Source: Victivallales bacterium
GTDB taxonomy: Bacteria > Verrucomicrobiota > Lentisphaeria > Victivallales > UBA1829
Assembly: GCA_045589595.1 (NCBI GenBank)
Contig: JAZNPK010000010.1
Coordinates: 66,190-130,189, forward strand
DNA: 64,000 nt
Direction: 5' to 3'
The notes under the pieces are model-generated. The model did no database searches, was not told the DNA's origin, and saw only the letters and a program-made list of their open reading frames with translations. The translations under genes and the position numbers were made by a program. Positions 33,235 to 63,724 of this stretch are shown piece by piece; the stretch's first letter is position 1; each line of letters starts with the position of its first letter.

Positions 33235-33563
33235 TTACAAATTTTCGATAATTTTCTGTAAGTGTCGGGGATTGTGGTATTTTCAGTTTGTAGCAAACTT
33301 TTTGAGATTTTTTCAAGGTTCAAGTATGGTCATTTTTAGTGTATTTGACTCGACCCCCGACTATTGTTTTTGATGATTTTACGCTCAAAAGTATGATTTT
33401 TGAGAATTTTTCCACAGTTTTTTATAAAGGTCTTTGCAAAGGTCGGATGGGAAATTCTCTGTTTTTTATGGCACGAAACGGAGAATTTGGCTCTATTGCA
33501 CCGTGTGTTTCTGTAACTTTTTAATCTCTAAAATCTTACATATAAAGCAATACATAAAGGTCG

Positions 33564-33660
33564 CCGACCTTTACATAACAGAGAATTTTCGCAAGATTTA
33601 TGCAAAACACACCCGATTTTGAGAATTTACCGTTTGATGAAAGCTCTGCCGCAATGGGTT
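33564..33660. repeat. Repeat family C, copy 1 (~97 bp)
   Basis: CCGAC.TTTACA.AACAGAGAATTT.CGCAAGATTTATGCAAAACACACCCGATTTTGAGAA..TACCGTTTGATGAAAGCTCTGCCGCAATGGGTT is almost identical to 36226-36321. Confidence 0.78.
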
Positions 33661-33729
33661 TTCAAGTAAAAGAAATTAAGCGGCAAAGCCGCGCTGTAAA
33701 GGTAACACATCCTCCCGCCGGAGGCGGCA

Positions 33730-33950
33730 ACTTCACACGCGGAGCGGCTTCACAAGTGCAATGAAGCGACAGCGTAATGAAACGACTTCATCCGCCGTCG
33801 CTGAAGGCTATGGCGGGACAAGCAAGCGAGGCTTCCCGGAATTCGTGAAGATGTGAAGAAAACCTTTGGTTTTGAGTGAAGAGCGGCTGGCGCCGCGTGA
33901 AGAGAAGCCTTGCGGCTTCGTGTTTTTTGCCTTGTGATCAAGGCAAAAAA
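33730..33950. repeat. Hairpin-array element (family E), copy a, GTGAAGA variant
   Basis: A short motif (GTGAAGA four times, plus CTTCAC/ATGAAGC variants) alternates with unrelated perfect hairpins (AAAACC/GGTTTT, GCGGC/GCCGC, GAAGCC/GGCTTC). It ends in an A/T-clamped hairpin TTTTTTGCCTTG-TGAT-CAAGGCAAAAAA. Confidence 0.7.
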
Positions 33951-33951
33951 A

Positions 33952-34165
33952 TGGTGGAGGGTGTTTTAATTCTTCGGAATACTTCTCTCAAGCTCAAAAC
34001 GGTTGTCAACAATACAATCTTGTTGAACCGTTTCACTTCTTCGAAAAACATCTCCGAAAGCATAAAAATCAAAACAGAGAACAGTTTTTACCTTAAAGTA
34101 AATGTCTGCAAATTCCGATGAAATAAAATCCGCCCCGGAAAACGGTCGCATCGCAGACATTTATT
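33952..34165. repeat. Repeat family D, copy 2
   Basis: See 25950-26162. This copy directly follows hairpin array a. Confidence 0.7.
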
Positions 34166-34298
34166 ATTAGGCTCTGTTCCCCATTACAGTTGATAGACAG
34201 TAAAGATGTTGGATCATATTTTTTTACCATTAATGGTGATTGATCCTTTTTTGGAAACAGATCATTTCAAAAAACTTACCGATAAATCATATAATCGG

Positions 34299-35891
34299 TT
34301 ATTCCTGAATTTTTGTATATATCGAAAGGCATGACGAACCGGTAATAATCGTATTTCTGCAAATTTTTGCACTTGTCTGCAATGCCTGCAATCCCCTTTG
34401 GTTGGTGTGTACATGAAAATGCGGCGCACATGATGAGGAAATGTCCACACGCAAACGGTCTCCGGCAAGCAGTTTGAAAGCGTGGGGCGCAAAAATAAAA
34501 TTGACAATACGTTCAGTTCCCGGAGTATAATTTTTTTCCAGACGGCACAGCGAATCTATATCATCCCGCAAAGGAAGCGTTTTCCCATTGCGCTCAAAAC
34601 TGATCCTTGCATAAAAACAAGTATCTTCTGCGGTGGAACTGCAATGAAGTTCAAGTTCCATATGTCCCTCACAGATCAAATCATTTTCAAGCGGTTCGGA
34701 GAGAAATGAAATGATGTCATAACGGGAATTCGGAGGATCCTGCAGCTGCATTCCACCGAAATTATTGCATAGGCCGCCGGCAAAAAATGCCGGATCATAA
34801 GGATTACTTGTATAGGTGATCTTTCCCGGTGCCGATGATGCAGCAAGAGTCCGTCCCGAGGTCAGAAAAAACTGATTCCTCTGCGGGGCATTGGTCAATT
34901 CCGGCGTGGAGTGCCAACAGTTGTCCCATAAGCGGTAATAGACTGTTTTGCCTTTTTGAACAAAGGGCAAAACAGTGCCAAGCCGGAAATGATCGAACCA
35001 TACATACTTCAAATCAGGTACACATTTGTCAAGCACAGCATCTTGGAAATCCTGCATTTCAGCCGGGAGAACAGTGGGATTATATGCGTGATCAAACGGC
35101 GTAACCACAAGCGCACAATTTTTTTTACGCACCGGGGAAAGTTTTTTCCACATATCAAATATACCTTCGGTATAAATATCATACATCGAAGTTATCAGCA
35201 GAATCGGGATGTCGCATTTATTACAGGCATCCTGATAATCGCTGCCGCCTTCCGGAGTACTCCAGTAAGGATCGTCAGGATCCGGATGACTGAAACTTTC
35301 CTCAATGTAGGGAACATATTCATTGAAAATAGTTTGGGTTATACCGGCAAGAGGCATTGTCCGGAAAGTTGCTGCAGTAAAGTTCCTTTCGACAGGCTGA
35401 TTTTTTTTATGCATTTTCATTACCCAGCTGCCATGCAGACCGCTCTTAAAAAATCCATGCCGGAAACAGATGTTGTATCTGTTACTGTCTTGAACTGCCA
35501 GCAATGCAGCTTTCACATCCGGCGGATTTGTATTCAGATAAGAAAGATGCACTGAAGCAGTATAGCTGCCTCCGAAAAGATAAATTTCTCCATTATAAAA
35601 AGTTTGCTGCCTGACCCATTCCAGCAGATCAAGACCATCGTTGCGTTCATTCAAATAAGCATTACATTCTCCTTCACTGCGTGCGGTTCCCCGGCACTGT
35701 TGGCTGACCACCGCATATCCATGAGTATTTTCCTGCCGCAGCTGTTCAAAGTCGATTTGTTCTGACTGATAAGGACTTCTTGAAATAATCACCGGAAAAG
35801 AACCGCTTTTTTCCGGGAGCTGGACGATGGTATAAAGTTTTATTCCGTCACGCATGGGGACAAGATATTCAAGAACAGTGTTGGCTGCCAT
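34299..35891 (-). CDS. CocE/NonD-family (S15 X-Pro dipeptidyl-peptidase-like) hydrolase
   Basis: N-terminal VPMRDGIKLYTIVQLPE...PVIISRSPY pattern, a GGSY nucleophile-elbow-like motif (LFGGSYTAS), and a ~530-aa length with a C-terminal beta-sandwich region. Confidence 0.78.
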   Translation of the reverse strand: MAANTVLEYLVPMRDGIKLYTIVQLPEKSGSFPVIISRSPYQSEQIDFEQLRQENTHGYAVVSQQCRGTARSEGECNAYLNERNDGLDLLEWVRQQTFYNGEIYLFGGSYTASVHLSYLNTNPPDVKAALLAVQDSNRYNICFRHGFFKSGLHGSWVMKMHKKNQPVERNFTAATFRTMPLAGITQTIFNEYVPYIEESFSHPDPDDPYWSTPEGGSDYQDACNKCDIPILLITSMYDIYTEGIFDMWKKLSPVRKKNCALVVTPFDHAYNPTVLPAEMQDFQDAVLDKCVPDLKYVWFDHFRLGTVLPFVQKGKTVYYRLWDNCWHSTPELTNAPQRNQFFLTSGRTLAASSAPGKITYTSNPYDPAFFAGGLCNNFGGMQLQDPPNSRYDIISFLSEPLENDLICEGHMELELHCSSTAEDTCFYARISFERNGKTLPLRDDIDSLCRLEKNYTPGTERIVNFIFAPHAFKLLAGDRLRVDISSSCAPHFHVHTNQRGLQALQTSAKICRNTIITGSSCLSIYTKIQE

Positions 35892-36225
35892 AAGGGGATT
35901 TTCCTTTTAGATACGTTTTGTTAATGTCCCAAATTTTGTGATGGGACGGGTTATTTGACAAAAGTGCATCTGACCTTTATTTTTTAGTGACCAAACAAAA
36001 AAATAAAAGGCAGCATCAGATACGCAGTAAAACTACTATGAAAAAGCCGATTTGTCAAGCGGAAAATGAAATTTTTGGGGGACGAATTGGTAAAAAAGTG
36101 GCAGATTCTTATAAAAAGAAGGCTTTCGCCGATATTTTGAAGATGAACTTGCAGTTAACTCAAGAGGTTTTGATGTACTGTATTTTTAACTAACGCTTAA
36201 CAAAAGAACTCCGCATAAATGACTG

Positions 36226-36321
36226 CCGACATTTACAAACAGAGAATTTCCGCAAGATTTATGCAAAACACACCCGATTTTGAGAAAATACCGTTTGATG
36301 AAAGCTCTGCCGCAATGGGTT
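36226..36321. repeat. Repeat family C, copy 2, abutting the stop codon of the four-helix-bundle gene
   Basis: See 33564-33660. Its last bases overlap the TAA (36322..36320 on the minus strand). Confidence 0.78.
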
Positions 36322-36680
36322 ATTTAAGATTCTGATTCGTGGTGTTGATTGAGGCGATCAGAGTTATTCTGATTTCCCGGCAGAGAGTTTCCAACCGATC
36401 ATATTCTGCAGAAGAGAGGATATTTGTTTTTCCCAATAGCAGCAGCCAGTAGCTTGTTTCATTGGCTTCTTTCAAGGCAATTTGCAGTTTTGAAACAAAA
36501 TCAGCTTTCCCGTGAGCATATTGCGCTTCGTGGATGTTGGCTCCGATACTTGTTCCGGCTCTGCCGATTTGATTGCAGATGATCGTTTCTCTCTGTTCTT
36601 TCAGATATTTTACAAGATTCAATAATTTCAACTGCAAATGCAATTGAAAGATCGACAAGTTTGTTTGACGATTTTTCCAT
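36320..36680 (-). pseudogene. Four-helix-bundle protein (23S rRNA IVS protein / DGR Avd family), apparently frameshifted
   Basis: The ATG at 36680 gives MEKSSNKLVDLSIAFAVEIIE... in one frame. A second frame gives ...LVKYLKEQRETIICNQIGRAGTSIGANIHEAQYAHGKADFVSKLQIALKEANETSYWLLLL... to the stop at 36320. The frames must be joined near 36610-36625 to give a normal family member. Confidence 0.7.
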
Positions 36681-36799
36681 GACAGATTTTTCCTTTCCAC
36701 TGAATAATGTAGCATTGGTAAGGAATATTTGCAAACACAGCTCTCATTTTTCATTTTTTCATCATCCGTCGCACGAAGTGCTATGGATGACAGGTCATA

Positions 36800-37063
36800 C
36801 GGAGCGTGAGCGGAGTGCTTCATATCGGAATGAAATGAAGATGCTTCATATTGTGGAGTGAAACGAAACAATGCTTCATCTGAAAAGGCGTTTTTATGAA
36901 GCACGTTGTGTCTTGCACGCCTCTGGCGTGTCAAGCACACAAAAGTATGAAGCACATTTTGTGCTTGCGAGCTTTGCTCGTCAAGCATCAAAATATATGA
37001 AGCGCACCTTCGGTGCATGAAGCGAAGCCTTAGGCTTCATTCACCATTTTTGCTCAGCAAAAA
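36800..37063. repeat. Hairpin-array element (family E), copy b, between tRNA-Val and the four-helix-bundle gene
   Basis: ATGAAGC occurs 4 times forward (36896, 36947, 36997, 37017) and GCTTCAT 4 times inverted, with TCAAGCA twice. Unique hairpins are interleaved (ACGCC/GGCGT, AGCAC/GTGCT, CGAGC/GCTCG, GCACC-TTCG-GGTGC, GAAGCC/GGCTTC). The terminal hairpin CCATTTTTGC-TCA-GCAAAAATGG overlaps the tRNA CCA end. Confidence 0.72.
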
Positions 37064-37140
37064 TGGTGGGCGTTGAGGGACTCGAACCCCCGACATTCAC
37101 GGTGTAAACGTGACGCTCTAACCAACTGAGCTAAACGCCC
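37064..37140 (-). tRNA. tRNA-Val (anticodon TAC), CCA encoded
   Basis: Hand-folded cloverleaf: GGGCGTT/AACGCCC acceptor, GCTC/GAGC D-stem, TCACG-TTTACAC-CGTGA anticodon arm, GGGGG-TTCGAGT-CCCTC T-arm, and ACCA tail. Confidence 0.95.
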
Positions 37141-37309
37141 GATCGTAAGAAAAAATGATCTTTTCGGTAAATTTCTTATAAGATACTCCATTTTTTTTAC
37201 TTTTCAAGTGGGAATTTGCGGAAAATGGTGTATATTATGTGATGATTCTATCAAAAATGAACATTTTTCCGGCACGCGTGCCGGTATCAAACAAGAAGGA
37301 TTGTAGAAG

Positions 37310-39172
37310 ATGCATCAGTTTAGAACGCATACCTGCGGCGAACTCCGCAAGGAAAATGTGGGTGAAAAAGTCCGGATCTCCGGCTGGGTAAACAGTGTCC
37401 GCGACCACGGCGGCGTTATTTTTATCGACCTGCGCGACCACTACGGTAAAACTCAGGTCGTCATCGATCCCAAGATGGATTTTTATCAGGAACTGGAACG
37501 GTGGCGTGTTGAAACCTGCCTGAGCTTCACCGGTTCCGTTGTTGCCCGCGCACCCGAAACCGTGAACCCGAAACTGGAAACCGGCGAGATCGAACTCTTT
37601 GCCGAAACCATGGATGTTCTCGGCGAAACGGAGCAGATCCCCTTCCAGATCGTGAAAGATGAAGATGCGCCCGAAGCGACCCGTCTGAAATACCGGTTTC
37701 TCGATTTGCGCCGCGATGATCTCCACAAAAAGATCGTCATGCGTTCCAATCTGATCCGCGAGATCCGCAAAAAAATGTGGGATATGGGCTTCAATGAATA
37801 TCAGACCCCGATCCTGACCAGCAGTTCTCCCGAAGGCGCCCGCGACTATCTGGTGCCCAGCCGTGTTCATCCCGGCGAATTTTATGCGTTGCCCCAGGCT
37901 CCCCAGCAGTTCAAACAGCTGCTCATGGTTGCCGGTTTCGACCGCTATTTCCAGATCGCGCCCTGTTTCCGTGACGAAGACGCACGCGCCGACCGGTCTC
38001 CCGGCGAATTTTATCAGCTCGACTGCGAAATGAGTTTCGTTACGCAGGACGACGTCTTTGCCGTGATGGAAGAACTGCTCACCACGATCTTCCCGAAATT
38101 TACCGATAAGAAGATCAGTGCCGCTCCGTTCCCGCGTATCCCCTTCAAGGAAGCAATGAACAAATACGGCAGCGACAAGCCGGATCTCCGCAACCCGCTG
38201 TTCATGGTGGATCTCTCCGATATTTTTGCAAAATCCGGATTCAAAGCCTTTGCTGCAACAGTCGCCAACGGCGGCAGCGTGAAGGGGATCCGCGTTCCGG
38301 GCATCGTGGGCGTTCAGCCCCGTGCGTGGTACGATAAGATGGAAGCCTTTGCAAAAGAAAACGGTTCCAAAGGTCTCGGTTACATCACCTGGAGCAAGGA
38401 AGGCGAACTCAAAGGACCGATCGCCAAGTTTATGAATGAAGCGGAACTTGCTGAACTGAAAGCTGCAGCAGAAATCGAAAACGGCGATGCGCTCTTCTTC
38501 ATTGCCGATAAAACTGCACTGGCAAACCAGATCGGCGGCAAAGTCCGCACGAAATTTGCGGAAACGCTCAACCTCATTGCAACGGATGAATTCCGTTTCT
38601 GCTGGATCGTGGACTTCCCCATGTTCGAGCTGGATGAAGAAACCAACAAGATCATCTTCAGTCACAACCCGTTCTCCATGCCCCAGGGCGGTATGGATGC
38701 GCTCCTGACCAAAGATCCGCTGGATGTTCTGGCGTATCAGTATGACATTGTCTGCAACGGCATTGAACTTTCTTCCGGAGCGATCCGTAACCACATGCCG
38801 GAACTGATGTACAAGGCGTTTGAGATCGCCGGTTACGATCCGTCTGTTGTCGATGAAAAATTCGGCGGCATGATCCAGGCGTTCAAACTCGGTGCGCCCC
38901 CGCACGGCGGTATTGCTCCCGGTATCGACCGTATGGCGATGCTGCTGGCAGATGCACCCAACATCCGCGAAGTCATTGCGTTCCCCTTCAACCAGCAGGC
39001 TCAGGACCTGATGATGAATGCGCCCGCGAACGTGGATATGAAACAGCTGCGTGAACTGCGTATCGTGCCGATCCCCCATGAACTCAAGTATGAAGAAACA
39101 TACAAGAAGATCATGGCGGAAGCTGAAAAGATCCGTGCGGCAGAAGCCGCCGCAGCCGCCGCACAGGCGTAA
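37310..39172 (+). CDS. aspS: Aspartyl-tRNA synthetase
   Basis: Class IIb motifs: [19 protein letters not shown] (motif 2) and [10 protein letters not shown] (motif 3), with an N-terminal OB anticodon-binding domain. An Ala-rich C-terminal tail is present. Confidence 0.97.
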
Positions 39173-47470: not shown

Positions 47471-47591
47471 CGTTGTTTTTCCTTTTTCAGTTTGCTGTTC
47501 ATACCAGTCCGCAAGGCGGACACAATTCTACCGTATTATACAACGACAAGCGGGGAAATCAACAGGTTTGCCGGAAAAAGAACAAAAAAAA

Positions 47592-47667
47592 TGGCATCCC
47601 CAACGGGATTCGAACCCGTGTTACCAGGATGAGAACCTGGTGTCCTGGGCCTCTAGACGATAGGGAC
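47592..47667 (-). tRNA. tRNA-Glu (anticodon CTC), CCA encoded
   Basis: Hand fold: GTCCCTA/TGGGGAT acceptor (with G-U pairs), TCTAGAGGCCCAGGA D-region typical of tRNA-Glu, CCAGG-TTCTCAT-CCTGG anticodon arm, ACGGG-TTCGAAT-CCCGT T-arm, and GCCA tail. Confidence 0.92.
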
Positions 47668-61083: not shown

Positions 61084-62016
61084 TTACGGAGCCGGCTGAT
61101 AAGAGAACTGATCTTTGCAGCTGCTTTTGATTTTTCTCATAATTTCAATTCTGCCGGGGAAGGGGATATGTGCGCCGAGCCACGTGCCGCCGCGCAGCAG
61201 CAGTTGATTCCGTGACGCAACCGCCTTCTGCCGGTCCATATCATACCGGGCGCAATAGCCGGGATATGGGATCTGAAGATCCGCCGCATGGACGATGTCG
61301 CCCACGAATGCCACCGTTTTGCCATCGCCGCTCACCTTCATCCGGAACACGGTATGTCCGGGCGTGTGACCCGGCAGAAATTCCGGCGTCAGATCAAAAT
61401 TCCGGATCGTTTTATTGTATGGCAGCAGCACCAGACGATTCTGATACGGTGCAAGATGTTTGCCGAGTCCGGCTCTGCCGCGATCTTTCTGCCAGGCTTC
61501 GTATTCCGTGCGGGTGATACAGAGTTTTGCCTTCGGGAACGCCGCATCCGTGCCGCCGGGAAGCGTCAGACCGCCCACGTGATCGGGGTGGATATGCGTG
61601 ATAAATACCGCATCGATCATCTCCGGCGTGATCCCTGCCGCCTGAAGCCGTTTCAACAACTGACTTCTTCCGTTGCCGAATCCGGTATCGATAAGAAAAT
61701 GTTCTCCGCTCTTTTTGATTTTTACCAGAAAAATATTGTGGGAGGCGTCATATTCTTTCTGCAGTTTGACCGGGGCAACGGGATAAAGATTCTGGAAAAG
61801 TGAGCCGGACATTCCGCCGGTCTGATCCTGAATGGATACGATGTAACGGTCCGGATATTCAAAAACGCAGATCCCGTCCATCGGTTTTTCAAGCAGATCC
61901 TGCAGCATATCTTCCGCAGCAGTGAGATGGGGCAGGGCAGCCGGGAAAATAATTGAAAGACAGCCCGTCAGGAGATACCATAATCTTTTTATGCAGATTT
62001 CTTTTGTTGATTGCAT
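61084..62016 (-). CDS. Secreted MBL-fold metallo-hydrolase
   Basis: ITHIHPDHVGG (HxHxDH). I set the start at the ATG at 62016, giving a signal-peptide-like MQSTKEICIKRLWYLLTGCLSIIFPAALPHLTAAE and removing the overlap with the upstream gene. Confidence 0.82.
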   Translation of the reverse strand: MQSTKEICIKRLWYLLTGCLSIIFPAALPHLTAAEDMLQDLLEKPMDGICVFEYPDRYIVSIQDQTGGMSGSLFQNLYPVAPVKLQKEYDASHNIFLVKIKKSGEHFLIDTGFGNGRSQLLKRLQAAGITPEMIDAVFITHIHPDHVGGLTLPGGTDAAFPKAKLCITRTEYEAWQKDRGRAGLGKHLAPYQNRLVLLPYNKTIRNFDLTPEFLPGHTPGHTVFRMKVSGDGKTVAFVGDIVHAADLQIPYPGYCARYDMDRQKAVASRNQLLLRGGTWLGAHIPFPGRIEIMRKIKSSCKDQFSYQPAP

Positions 62017-62027
62017 CAGGGGTTCTA

Positions 62028-62855
62028 TCAGCAGAGATCGATTTGTGATGGGAAGTACTGAGCCAGCATATCGGGAGTTCCCGATGGCATGAACATCTGA
62101 AATCCGGTGACCCCGCATTTGACGGCCGTTGATATCGCTTCAATGGTCTTAAGCCCCCAACACCAGATGTGGATGCCGGTCGCTTCTGCCCTTTCTGCAA
62201 GTCTTTTATCAAATATTCCATTGGTAAGACCACACAAACAAATAATGCTGTATCCTCCGGCAGCAGAGTCGTCAATGAGCTGTTCCGAAAGCGGCGTATT
62301 CGGAACCAGCGTGTGACAGTATTTCAAGCCCGGACAAAGCGAATCGATCAGCTGTACCGCTCCGGGCTGCGGCGGATAAAAGTTTACAACAGTACGCCCG
62401 GTCATTTCATACTGGCGCAATAATTCCACCATGCGCGCCACAACTTCCGGACGCCATGGGTCATCCCGCAGCGTCAGATAGGCGAAGCGATTATGATCCC
62501 GGCAGAGTTGAAGCATCGTTTCAAGCTGACAGGGACGATGGTGTTCTCCTCCCCAAGCTTGCGCAAACCGGAGATCGTTGATCTCTCCTGCAGTCAAATC
62601 GTGGATCGCAGTGAATTTATCCGGAGCAAAACTTGTGATCATGCCATTCTCATCAAATGTGTAACCGTCATCGTGACAGAGAATGATTTTGCCATCCTTT
62701 GAAAGTTGCATATCCGCTTTCATCCCGTGATAGCCATTGCGGATCGCTTCCTTGAAATGAATCTCAGAATTGCCGGGTATTCCGGGAAATACGGAATAGG
62801 CAATGTCCATAATTTTCTGATTGTCTGCAAAATCGAAATATGTTTTGAAATCCAT
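62028..62855 (-). CDS. Glycerophosphodiester phosphodiesterase-family protein
   Basis: GMKADMQLSKDGKIILCHDD matches the GDPD E/D-x-D...HD pattern. Confidence 0.75.
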   Translation of the reverse strand: MDFKTYFDFADNQKIMDIAYSVFPGIPGNSEIHFKEAIRNGYHGMKADMQLSKDGKIILCHDDGYTFDENGMITSFAPDKFTAIHDLTAGEINDLRFAQAWGGEHHRPCQLETMLQLCRDHNRFAYLTLRDDPWRPEVVARMVELLRQYEMTGRTVVNFYPPQPGAVQLIDSLCPGLKYCHTLVPNTPLSEQLIDDSAAGGYSIICLCGLTNGIFDKRLAERAEATGIHIWCWGLKTIEAISTAVKCGVTGFQMFMPSGTPDMLAQYFPSQIDLC

Positions 62856-63260: not shown

Positions 63261-63483
63261 GGCACATATGAGCGGAGCGAATGATTCATATTTGGAGTGA
63301 AACGGAAAATGCTTCATAACGAAGTTGCTTCATCTGAAAAGGCTTCATTTTTATGAAGCACGCCTGTCGGCGTATGAAGCATTTTGCGGCATTGCCGCAA
63401 AATATGAAGCACCGCAGATGCGGTATGAAGCAAAGCCTTTTCAGGCTTCATATTTTTTTGCCTTGAACAAGGCAAAAAAAATG
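63261..63483. repeat. Hairpin-array element (family E), copy c (cleanest copy)
   Basis: GCTTCAT at 63311, 63327, 63342 and 63445. ATGAAGC at 63353, 63374, 63404 and 63425. The forward copies are separated by perfect unrelated hairpins (ACGCC/GGCGT, ATTTTGCGGC/GCCGCAAAAT, ACCGC/GCGGT). The element ends in TTTTTTTGCCTTG-AA-CAAGGCAAAAAAA followed by ATGGCGG. Confidence 0.72.
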
Positions 63484-63724
63484 GCGGCTGGCTTTTTTAT
63501 CTTTCCCCGCCATTCTGAAGCGCATTTTGAGGTAAAAAACTCAGAATTTCGCTGTGAAATAAAATTCTGAAAATCACTTCACTTTTATATAAGGTTCCGG
63601 AAAATTATTGTATAAATGGAAATATTTGATACTTTCCGATCATCTTTGACCGGTTGTTTTTTGAAGGACGGCAGAGAGAGTTTTTATACCGGAAAAACGC
63701 TGAAATTACATAGAAAAACAGTTG

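Follow-up and report, generated by a model that had tools for sequence, protein, structure and literature searches.

A multicopy, modular palindromic element fixed at the 3' ends of tRNA operons in Lentisphaeria

Two inverted arrays of a 7-nt word and perfect hairpins

We analyzed a 64,000-nt stretch of contig JAZNPK010000010.1 from a Victivallales bacterium (referred to here as the window), which carries three copies of an array in which a short word alternates with perfect hairpins. Copy 1 is followed by a conserved unit of ~110 nt, copy 2 abuts a convergent tRNA-Val gene, and copy 3 carries a variant of the word; the + strand of the window serves as the reference for element orientation. 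These arrays represent a lineage-restricted, multicopy, modular palindromic element whose helices are maintained and whose position and orientation are fixed at the 3' ends of tRNA operons. The element family is previously undescribed.

A sequence-only reading of the window had described the three copies, and its word positions and perfect, directly abutting hairpins are confirmed here (Table 1). ATGAAGC and its complement GCTTCAT match the window 33 times (12.0 +/- 3.7 expected), a count reached in 0 of 100 shuffles, and the matches cluster in the named element loci. A unit detector, defined as an identical 7-mer flanking an abutting perfect hairpin, was run on 635 kb comprising the window and related loci (cited below by their numbers). 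It returned 257 units versus 9 in shuffled sequence, far beyond chance; 215 of the units carry ATGAAGC or GCTTCAT.

Each element is built from two inverted arrays, (GCTTCAT + hairpin)n followed by (ATGAAGC + hairpin)n, each reading towards the center, and in every element GCTTCAT copies are as numerous as the complementary ATGAAGC copies. The inverted GCTTCAT copies listed in the sequence-only reading are present, and abutting hairpins stand between them too, which makes the 5' part the mirror image of the 3' array. Elements of family A start with GAGCG(A/G)AGCGAAT and contain two to four GCTTCAT words in the 5' half with abutting hairpins between them, of which two have nearly invariant 13-nt loops (GGAGTGAAACGGA and GGAATGAAATGGA) and a third is the mini-hairpin AAC-GAA-GTT. 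A segment of 8 to 11 nt (CTGAAAAGGC or CGTCAGGC) leads to the 3' half, in which usually four ATGAAGC words are separated by hairpin cassettes; the tail, RAA-GCCTTTTCAG-GCTTCAT, is closed by a T-run, a short G+C stem-loop, and an A-run. The same plan, with the words CTTCAC and GTGAAG(A), is found in family B (copy 3 plus L157, L164, L187, and L008), and the word pair covaries between the families (GCTTCAT/ATGAAGC in A versus CTTCAC/GTGAAG in B). Conservation begins at a sharp 5' boundary, CATATGAGCG, and the leader loops GGAGUGAAACGGA and GGAAUGAAAUGGA are almost invariant.

The layout is kept while the hairpin sequences are not, as the sequence-only reading had proposed. We distinguished 45 hairpin cassettes from ~10 stem families, which are common to several species and are differently ordered and combined. 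In the cassette stems, 249 of ~265 pairs are Watson-Crick, and G.T-type mismatches are no commoner than others. Stems show compensatory double changes (GCGGC/GCCGC to GCGGT/ACCGC, ACCGC/GCGGT to ACTGC/GCAGT, and GCATC/GATGC to GCAGC/GCTGC), and loop interiors vary freely.

The two halves are also tied by a long-range helix. What follows the last leader word is a segment that exactly matches the reverse complement of the tail segment, and the two covary: CTGAAAAGGC (the pair carried by copy 1) occurs with GCCTTTTCAG in 29 copies, CGTCAGGC with GCCTGACG in 10, and CTGATAAGGC with GCCTTATCAG in 1, with only 2 copies discordant; the family B partners are GCAAGGCTTC and GAAGCCTTGC. The same 5' segment is complementary to the 5' arm and loop of the + strand tail terminator. 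Most minimum-free-energy folds pair the complementary 7-mers, in nested order, and the three window regions fold more stably than shuffles (z scores of -5.3, -6.7, and -2.8), the reverse strand folding equally well. A protein sponge presenting single-stranded motifs, one hypothesis of the sequence-only reading, is disfavored by this pairing with equally numerous complementary copies.

Table 1 Element copies in the window and their immediate neighbors
Feature	Position	Strand	Description
Copy 1, 5' half	63270..63348	+	GAGCGGAGCGAAT, then three units of GATTCAT/GCTTCAT with abutting hairpin (GCTTCAT at 63311, 63327, 63342); hairpins ATTT-GGAGTGAAACGGA-AAAT with conserved loop and mini-hairpin AAC-GAA-GTT; also CTGAAAAGGC
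Copy 1, 3' half	63353..63431	+	Four ATGAAGC (63353, 63374, 63404, 63425); three perfect hairpins between, each abutting the 7-mers on both sides: ACGCC-TGTC-GGCGT, ATTTTGCGGC-ATT-GCCGCAAAAT, ACCGC-AGAT-GCGGT
Copy 1, tail	63432..63459	+	AAAGCCTTTTCAG + GCTTCAT (63445) + A + T7
Copy 1, closing palindrome	63453..63481		T7-GCCTTG-AA-CAAGGC-A8
Copy 1, neighbor	63482..63600	-	Conserved ~110-nt unit 'X' ending in hairpin TGGCGG...CCGCCA + T8
Copy 2, overall	36802-37063		4 + 4 copies of the word
Copy 2 (family A)	36802..37040	+	5' half, three GCTTCAT words at 36817, 36843, 36873; array, ATGAAGC at 36896, 36947, 36997, 37017 with hairpins of 44, 43, and 13 nt between; tail, GAAGCC-TTA-GGCTTCAT
Copy 2, closing palindrome, type b	37041..37068		T-CACCA-T5-GC-TCA-GC-A5-TGGTG
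tRNA-Val(TAC)	37064..37140	-	Convergent with copy 2, abutting; CCA end is TGGTGGGCG
Left of copy 2	36690..36765	-	Conserved A/T-rich block (ATGATGAAAAAATGAAAAATGAGAG on the minus strand)
Copy 3, overall	about 33705-33951		GTGAAGA at 33845, 33853, 33876, 33897
Copy 3 (family B)	33705..33922	+	5' part, CTTCAC x2, hairpins with AUGAAAC/AUGAAGC in loops; array, GTGAAGA x4 with hairpins AAAACC-TTT-GGTTTT and GCGGC-TGGC-GCCGC; tail, GAAGCC-TTGC-GGCTTC + T6, scored + strand terminator
Copy 3, closing palindrome	33923..33957		T6-GCCTTG-TGAT-CAAGGC-A7, then TGGTGG

Position at tRNA 3' ends, distribution, and strain variation

Right ends were compared in the 42 copies for which this end is complete and flanked by sufficient sequence. 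All 42 end in an A-run followed by TGG, and in 29 of them this TGG is, at offset 0, the encoded CCA of a convergent tRNA gene. The adjoining tRNAs are those for Ser (all isoacceptors), His, Val, Gln, Pro, Leu, and Ala, and each is the last tRNA of its operon. Most of the remaining copies abut either a truncated tRNA 3' fragment or a terminator-like CCGCCA hairpin; the latter (TGGCGG...CCGCCA + T8) belongs to the ~110-nt unit that neighbors window copy 1 and the copies at L137, L187, L190, and L194, and at copy 1 this unit occupies the slot held elsewhere by a tRNA 3' end. All copies lie in one orientation, with no inverted copy nearby. This strict association is absent from the sequence-only reading, which had closed the element with an A/T-clamped hairpin and ATGG(C/T)GG: the hairpin stands, and ATGG(C/T)GG proves to be the 3' end of the neighbor on the other strand.

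Element and neighbor meet within the closing palindrome itself. Because tRNA genes without an element (e.g., tRNA-Glu, 47592-47667) also show CCA followed by T5-8, the A-run of the clamp is the tRNA's own T-run; at copy 1, it is the other-strand T-run 3' of the CCA of unit 'X'. The lengths of the T-run and the A-run are correlated (r = 0.77). In 14 copies the palindrome extends 5 to 7 nt into the neighbor and matches the neighbor's identity, with TCACCA/TGGTG at tRNA-Val and tRNA-Ala (one of these sites being a truncated tRNA-Val fragment) and TCCGCCA/TGGCGGA at tRNA-Ser, in addition to one CCGCCA-terminator site; in copy 2, the last 5 nt of tRNA-Val form the right arm. Every tRNA gene that we saw encodes CCA and then, almost at once, 4 to 8 T (window 47580-47667 and 37059-37140; L133, L151, L152, L159, L178, L191, and L196), which suggests that the acceptor stem with its U-run acts as a terminator or processing signal.

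The truncated tRNA 3' fragments are 22 to 30 nt long and lie between the element and foreign DNA (L234 13340-13400, L148, L189, and L131). They mark att-type junctions where islands or a provirus entered the tRNA originally adjoining the element. An N terminus resembling a tyrosine integrase lies ~0.9 kb away in L137 and L155.

The distribution of the element was surveyed with the leader pattern TGGAGTGAAACG-N5-10-GCTTCAT against one genome per GTDB species. Of 72 loci, ~60 have the full architecture, nearly all in Lentisphaeria/Victivallaceae metagenome-assembled genomes (MAGs) from animal guts. A few of these lie in bins titled Clostridia or Lachnospiraceae, one (L198) with copy-2-type sequence, and look like mis-binned contigs; ~10 matches in other phyla lack arrays and are chance matches. 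The same pattern found only 4 further true copies in Joint Genome Institute (JGI) metagenomes and one in IMG/VR, at a provirus border beside a truncated tRNA-Ser fragment. The family comprises about 65 copies, several per genome, with no more than five element-bearing contigs in a single MAG; contigs often break within the element. BLAST against phages and plasmids gave no match to the element, and a generic scan of viral contigs for ATGAAGC-N-ATGAAGC-N-ATGAAGC gave, among the matches listed, no array architecture and two isolated chance units.

Closely related strains differ at these loci. Among strains with identical AspRS, one cassette of copy 2 is exchanged (a 43-nt hairpin versus GGCACTGCGTGCC) and loops are altered; elsewhere among them an insertion sequence (IS) of the IS3 family replaces the repeat, and in one strain 3.1 kb between copies 3 and 2 has been deleted. 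Among strains with identical GDPD protein, copy 1 varies through swapped modules and through loss of the 3' half by microhomology deletion. Across species, subfamilies track tRNA type; tRNA-His copies have common modules, and most of them are followed by an intact or truncated PF05635 gene. Given these strain variants and the occurrence of the same subfamilies at the same tRNA across species, the family is an old resident of its sites that is homogenized and shuffled by recombination, and single copies are dispensable. The sequence-only suggestion that the arrays mark the end of a nonautonomous mobile element is contradicted by this cross-species residence and single orientation, and integrated islands displace the element, leaving a tRNA 3' fragment, instead of carrying it.

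Strains vary especially strongly at the tRNA-Val locus (window 33700-37310 and its strain variants L001-L010). In L002, L005, and L007 the place of the repeat next to tRNA-Val is taken by an IS3-family (rve) element, whereas L001, L003, and L010 contain an IS4-like DUF4372 gene. L008 shows a fusion of copy 3 with tRNA-Val, with loss of the CocE-like hydrolase and PF05635 genes.

On its left side, copy 2 is flanked by a sigma-70-like promoter (TTGCAA-17-TACATT, assigned by eye) that points outward from the element and faces the PF05635 gene; a promoter scan detected its L133 counterpart, TTGCAA-17-TATATT. The L133 promoter and an ~85-nt 5' untranslated region up to the ATG span 2530-2645, with equivalents in ~20 loci (including L137, L150, L155, L164, L168, L169, L187, L190-L192, and L199). 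The conserved promoter and leader precede dissimilar small genes for signal-peptide proteins or lipoproteins, as though one expression platform had been joined to different cargoes. At about 10 loci the left neighbor is, in place of the small secreted-protein genes, a PF05635 gene (23S rRNA intervening-sequence protein/Avd-like four-helix bundle) (window 36320-36734, - strand; L132, L139, L152, L156, L184, L195, L198, L224, and L225). The window reading frame is split over two frames and may be a pseudogene. We rejected this gene as a partner of the element, as it is adjacent in just ~10 of ~45 loci.

Other features of the neighborhood are recorded here for completeness. The ~110-nt unit (…TTTTCAGAATTT…AAATTCTGA…TTCAGAATGGCGGGG…CCAGCCGCCA + T8) occurs not only beside copy 1 and in L137, L187, L190, and L194 but also in L201 and L224-L231. 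It could be an unannotated small RNA or leader; its sole match is a weak one to csRNA (20 bits, E 3.5). Between the hydrolase and PF05635 genes, window 35958-36013 (- strand) has a subthreshold match to the Staphylococcus small RNA (sRNA) sau-5949 (37.8 bits versus a gathering threshold of 56, E 0.0018). The 570-nt noncoding stretch to the left of copy 3 contains a 12-bp perfect palindrome, TATGTAAAGGTCGGCGACCTTTATGTA, at 33551-33577 that was flagged as terminator-like on the - strand. Beside the GDPD gene lies a gene (window 61084-62118, - strand; L224 3340-4272) with matches to PF23023 (anti-Pycsar Apyc1) and the metallo-beta-lactamase fold, which is probably a housekeeping nuclease of that fold rather than an antidefense gene.

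Comparison with described repeat and RNA classes

The sequence-only reading could assign the arrays to no described repeat or RNA class, and our searches agree. Only two tRNAs in the whole window pass the gathering thresholds of Rfam 15 (whose families include rtT, csRNA, Flavo-1, Acido-Lenti-1, and CsrB/RsmZ), and a search of the three loci at permissive E values gave best scores of 15 to 20 bits versus thresholds of 42 to 97. With respect to structured noncoding RNAs in general, compensatory changes occur in the cassettes, the 5'/3' helix, and the closing palindrome, whereas G.U pairs are nearly absent, the rungs formed by the 7-mers are invariant, and the loop bias favors different strands in the two halves.

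Arrays of clustered regularly interspaced short palindromic repeats (CRISPR) have direct repeats of ~23 to 50 nt, unique nonpalindromic spacers of similar length, a leader, and usually cas genes. Here the repeat is 7 nt long and the spacers are palindromes from ~10 recurring families common to species, which excludes such an array and CRISPR-like acquisition, in line with the sequence-only reading; no cas genes occur among the neighbors. Integron attC sites are imperfect hairpins of 60 to 140 nt with R''/L''/L'/R' boxes of GTTRRRY core and extrahelical bases, which bound open reading frame (ORF) cassettes near intI. The hairpins here are perfect, are 13 to 44 nt long, enclose no ORFs, and adjoin ATGAAGC, not GTTRRRY, with no integrase consistently adjacent. 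Plasmid or phage iterons are direct 17- to 22-bp repeats by a rep gene or origin, and the iteron-like array suggested by the sequence-only reading fails on the 7-nt word in both orientations, the chromosomal setting, the lack of a replicon or of a rep gene nearby, and the perfect hairpin abutment, for which it does not account. A type III toxin-antitoxin RNA of the ToxI kind would consist of tandem identical repeats of ~34 to 36 nt, a terminator, and then an endoRNase toxin gene on the same strand; here the units are nonidentical, and what lies downstream on the + strand is antisense tRNA. A coding reading was also rejected, as ATG AAG C stays in frame in copy 1 (spacings of 21, 30, and 21) but not in copy 2 or most copies (20, 50, and 51), and the putative peptides differ between copies in frame and length. 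So was a DNA uptake or Chi-like word, since the 7-mer is unenriched outside the elements in the window (~16 copies versus 12 expected).

The closest likenesses are to mosaic intergenic repeats. As in repetitive extragenic palindromic (REP) sequences and the bacterial interspersed mosaic elements (BIMEs) made from them, the units are extragenic, lie after the 3' ends of transcription units, occur as palindromes in both orientations with short conserved linkers, and vary in number. BIMEs are thought to act as structured RNA or DNA in mRNA 3' protection, attenuation, and gyrase or IHF binding. In BIMEs, however, the imperfect palindrome (~35 nt, 5' GTAG) is conserved and linkers are of several types, whereas here the palindromes vary in sequence and length and the flanking 7-nt linker is invariant. 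BIMEs also number in the hundreds, compared with a few copies per genome here, and the present family is bound to tRNA or CCA + T-run ends in one orientation and has no sequence similarity to them. We rejected assignment to the REP/BIME unit; no gene for a REP-associated tyrosine transposase (RAYT, a Y1 transposase) was found among the neighbors, which are MAG fragments only.

The pneumococcal BOX element has the structure boxA-boxB(n)-boxC, in which 5' and 3' modules pair, internal modules fold alone, and their gain or loss does no harm to the rest (PMC3049150). Our element shares with BOX this composite architecture, with pairing 5' and 3' modules, a variable number of independently folding internal modules, and variability between strains. 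It has no sequence in common with BOX, and it differs in that BOX repeats one 45-nt internal module in place of different short hairpins with a 7-mer, and BOX is dispersed and resembles a miniature inverted-repeat transposable element (MITE), in both orientations and with IS-like terminal inverted repeats (TIRs). A MITE/BOX-type transposon was rejected: the outer ends (CATATGAGCG... and ...A-run/TGG) show no TIR or target site duplication (TSD), all copies lie at CCA + T-run ends in one orientation, and strain differences are swaps and deletions, with no clean insertions.

Two RNA systems invite comparison. Functional tRNA trailers (the E. coli tyrT 178-bp repeats with rtT RNA, and the glyW-cysT-leuZ 3' external transcribed spacer [3'ETS] sponge) likewise place a structured repeat directly after the last tRNA of an operon. 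The rtT repeats contain a copy of the tRNA 3' end, which is direct, whereas type-b copies here (defined below) repeat the last 5 to 7 nt inverted. Unlike those trailers, the element has no Rfam rtT match, its best terminator is on the opposite strand, and the 7-mer/hairpin architecture has no counterpart there. Sponge sRNAs of the CsrB/RsmZ type also display a repeated short motif on several hairpins, come from multicopy genes, and end in an intrinsic terminator. The element differs from them in having no family match, equal numbers of complementary motif copies in cis, GGA in just two leader loops, and no identified promoter.

Candidate functions of the element

Our preferred reading, held tentatively, is that of a resident mosaic palindromic element, BIME/BOX-like in kind, that acts in cis as a structured boundary. 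Each copy occupies the interval between the promoter of the next gene and the end of a tRNA operon (or of another small transcription unit ending in CCA + T-run). If single-stranded, whether as extruded DNA or as a transcript (read-through or convergent), the element would pair its complementary 7-mers into stacked 7-bp rungs with the hairpins as side arms, giving a predicted ladder of perfect four-way junctions. Such a very stable block could halt transcription, or insulate the heavily transcribed tRNA operon and the neighboring promoter from each other, and might also hinder exonucleases; the identical 7-mers would allow recombination between copies and hence cassette shuffling. The cis function is one that we infer from sequence. 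We rank it highest because the element abuts its neighbor exactly, its palindrome reaches into the tRNA end, G.U is nearly absent, copies are mosaic and individually dispensable, and no promoter can be recognized.

Several points weigh against a structured boundary. A stable block has no need of the invariant leader loops, which suggest a sequence-specific partner, and the invariance of the 7-mer suggests recognition and not pairing alone. The good + strand terminator with its antiterminator-like complement fits a dedicated RNA gene equally well, and BIME and BOX copies number in the hundreds and occupy diverse kinds of sites, whereas this family is few-copy and site-specific. Finally, RNAalifold on the leader and tail of family A found no compensatory pairs in the rungs, because the 7-mers are invariant.

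The main alternative, although on balance an unlikely one, is a convergent structured sRNA gene on the + strand that would start near GAGCG, fold into the ladder of four-way junctions, and end at the GAAGCC hairpin and U7. In trans, its product might sponge a protein or an RNA by means of the RUGAARY/GCUUCAU words and conserved GGA-containing loops, and pairing of the 5' segment with the terminator 5' arm could regulate read-through into tRNA antisense. In type-a copies the tail hairpin and T-run do form a canonical, correctly placed intrinsic terminator on the + strand (in copy 1, AAGCCT-TTTC-AGGCTT + T-run is scored as one), but in type b (14 of 42 copies) 6 to 7 nt separate hairpin and T-run and the terminator scan finds none there; the A/T clamp is itself noncanonical either way, with the T-run 5' and the A-run 3' of the stem on both strands. 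The sharp 5' conservation boundary, the invariant leader loops, the covarying antiterminator-like complement, and fold z scores of -5 to -7 speak for such a gene. Most copies have GAAC-N17-CATCAT/CATAAT upstream, which by eye we would label ECF-like; the scan found no + strand sigma-70 promoter, however, and the upstream sequence of window copy 1 and several other copies is unrelated. G.U-type mismatches number 8 on the + strand versus 3 on the - strand, a weak and nonsignificant difference, and G.U is almost absent overall. Loops between GCTTCAT words read G...A on the + strand, but those between ATGAAGC words read T..C, that is, GNA or GNNA on the tRNA-sense strand; the loop ends thus indicate opposite strands for the two halves and do not settle the strand. 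Strain deletions remove the whole 3' half, terminator included, and a separate gene would have no use for base-exact tRNA abutment or an invading palindrome.

It is rather improbable that the array is instead a 3' trailer RNA in the tRNA sense, carried as a 3'ETS by read-through of a weak CCA + U-run and processed like E. coli rtT or the 3'ETS-leuZ sponge, or controlling 3' maturation by pairing with the CCA end. Both of those RNAs are precedents for functional tRNA trailers. The constant place downstream of, and co-oriented with, the operon's last tRNA agrees with a trailer, as do the pairing of the closing palindrome with the last 5 to 7 nt of the tRNA, which tracks tRNA identity, and the GNA or GNNA loops of the tRNA-proximal half; the G..A loops of the distal half, though, lie on the other strand. 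The element matches neither rtT nor any other Rfam family, no terminator closes it on the tRNA-sense strand, a strong separate promoter comes next, and the T-run right after CCA at all tRNAs probably ends most transcripts. We give little credence to a protein-binding array in double-stranded DNA, in which a regulator or nucleoid protein controlling the adjacent promoter would recognize ATGAAGC and its near copies (RTGAAAY in the leader loops) as operator- or iteron-like sites, with hairpins as mere spacers. The 7-mer is invariant in both orientations at 8 to 12 sites in 200 bp, and the element lies just upstream of a strong promoter. Word-to-word spacings of 20/21 (111 cases), 30 (33), and 50/51 (10) nt lie near multiples of ~10.3 bp, but this is suggestive for the array half only, as the 5'-half spacings (16, 26, 28, and 30) are unphased, and with three independent size classes the phasing may be chance. 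Such binding would leave the perfect abutting palindromes, compensatory changes, and G..A loop ends unexplained, and no DNA-binding gene is consistently nearby. The least probable reading is a site-specific nonautonomous mobile element, or single-stranded DNA substrates of an HUH/Y1 (RAYT-like) or other recombinase that inserts or shuffles cassettes at the 7-mer. The family is multicopy and mosaic, cassettes are exchanged between strains, and the bias in the loops depends on word orientation, the pattern expected of a unit read on one strand. Inverted repeats of 10 bp, themselves flanked by direct GCTTCAT copies, enclose the inner array and resemble TIR + TSD, but that resemblance is ambiguous since the 'TSD' is just the generic word. 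The outer ends lack both, and no empty/filled polymorphism was found. Subfamilies are syntenic across species, the hairpin sequences are too different for one transposase, and no transposase or Y1 gene is consistently linked among the neighbors. Islands and IS elements displace or delete the element and do not carry it, and it has no phage or plasmid match.

It is distinctly unlikely, in our estimate, that the elements encode a new class of tRNA-linked ladder RNA with 7-bp rungs and interchangeable arms, which would serve as a riboregulator in tRNA expression or maturation and would lack known relatives. In such an RNA, the 5' segment would compete with its own terminator and so regulate read-through into neighboring tRNA antisense; alternatively, pairing with the CCA end would be regulated.

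The arrays follow a new repeat grammar, an invariant 7-mer with exchangeable perfect hairpins in two inverted arrays, and add to the small catalog of bacterial intergenic structured repeats. Their site specificity, base-exact at the CCA end of tRNA operons, is unusual. The element is a Lentisphaeria/Victivallaceae-specific marker, and it breaks metagenome assemblies. To our knowledge, essentially no noncoding RNAs have been described from this phylum. If the element acts at the DNA level, it would offer a clean system in which palindrome perfection is kept while loops and order turn over between strains. If it acts as RNA, its stacked four-way junctions would make a natural fold of unusual regularity and it would be a candidate regulator at tRNA loci, and were both the ladder RNA and its link to tRNA expression true, the element would be categorically new.

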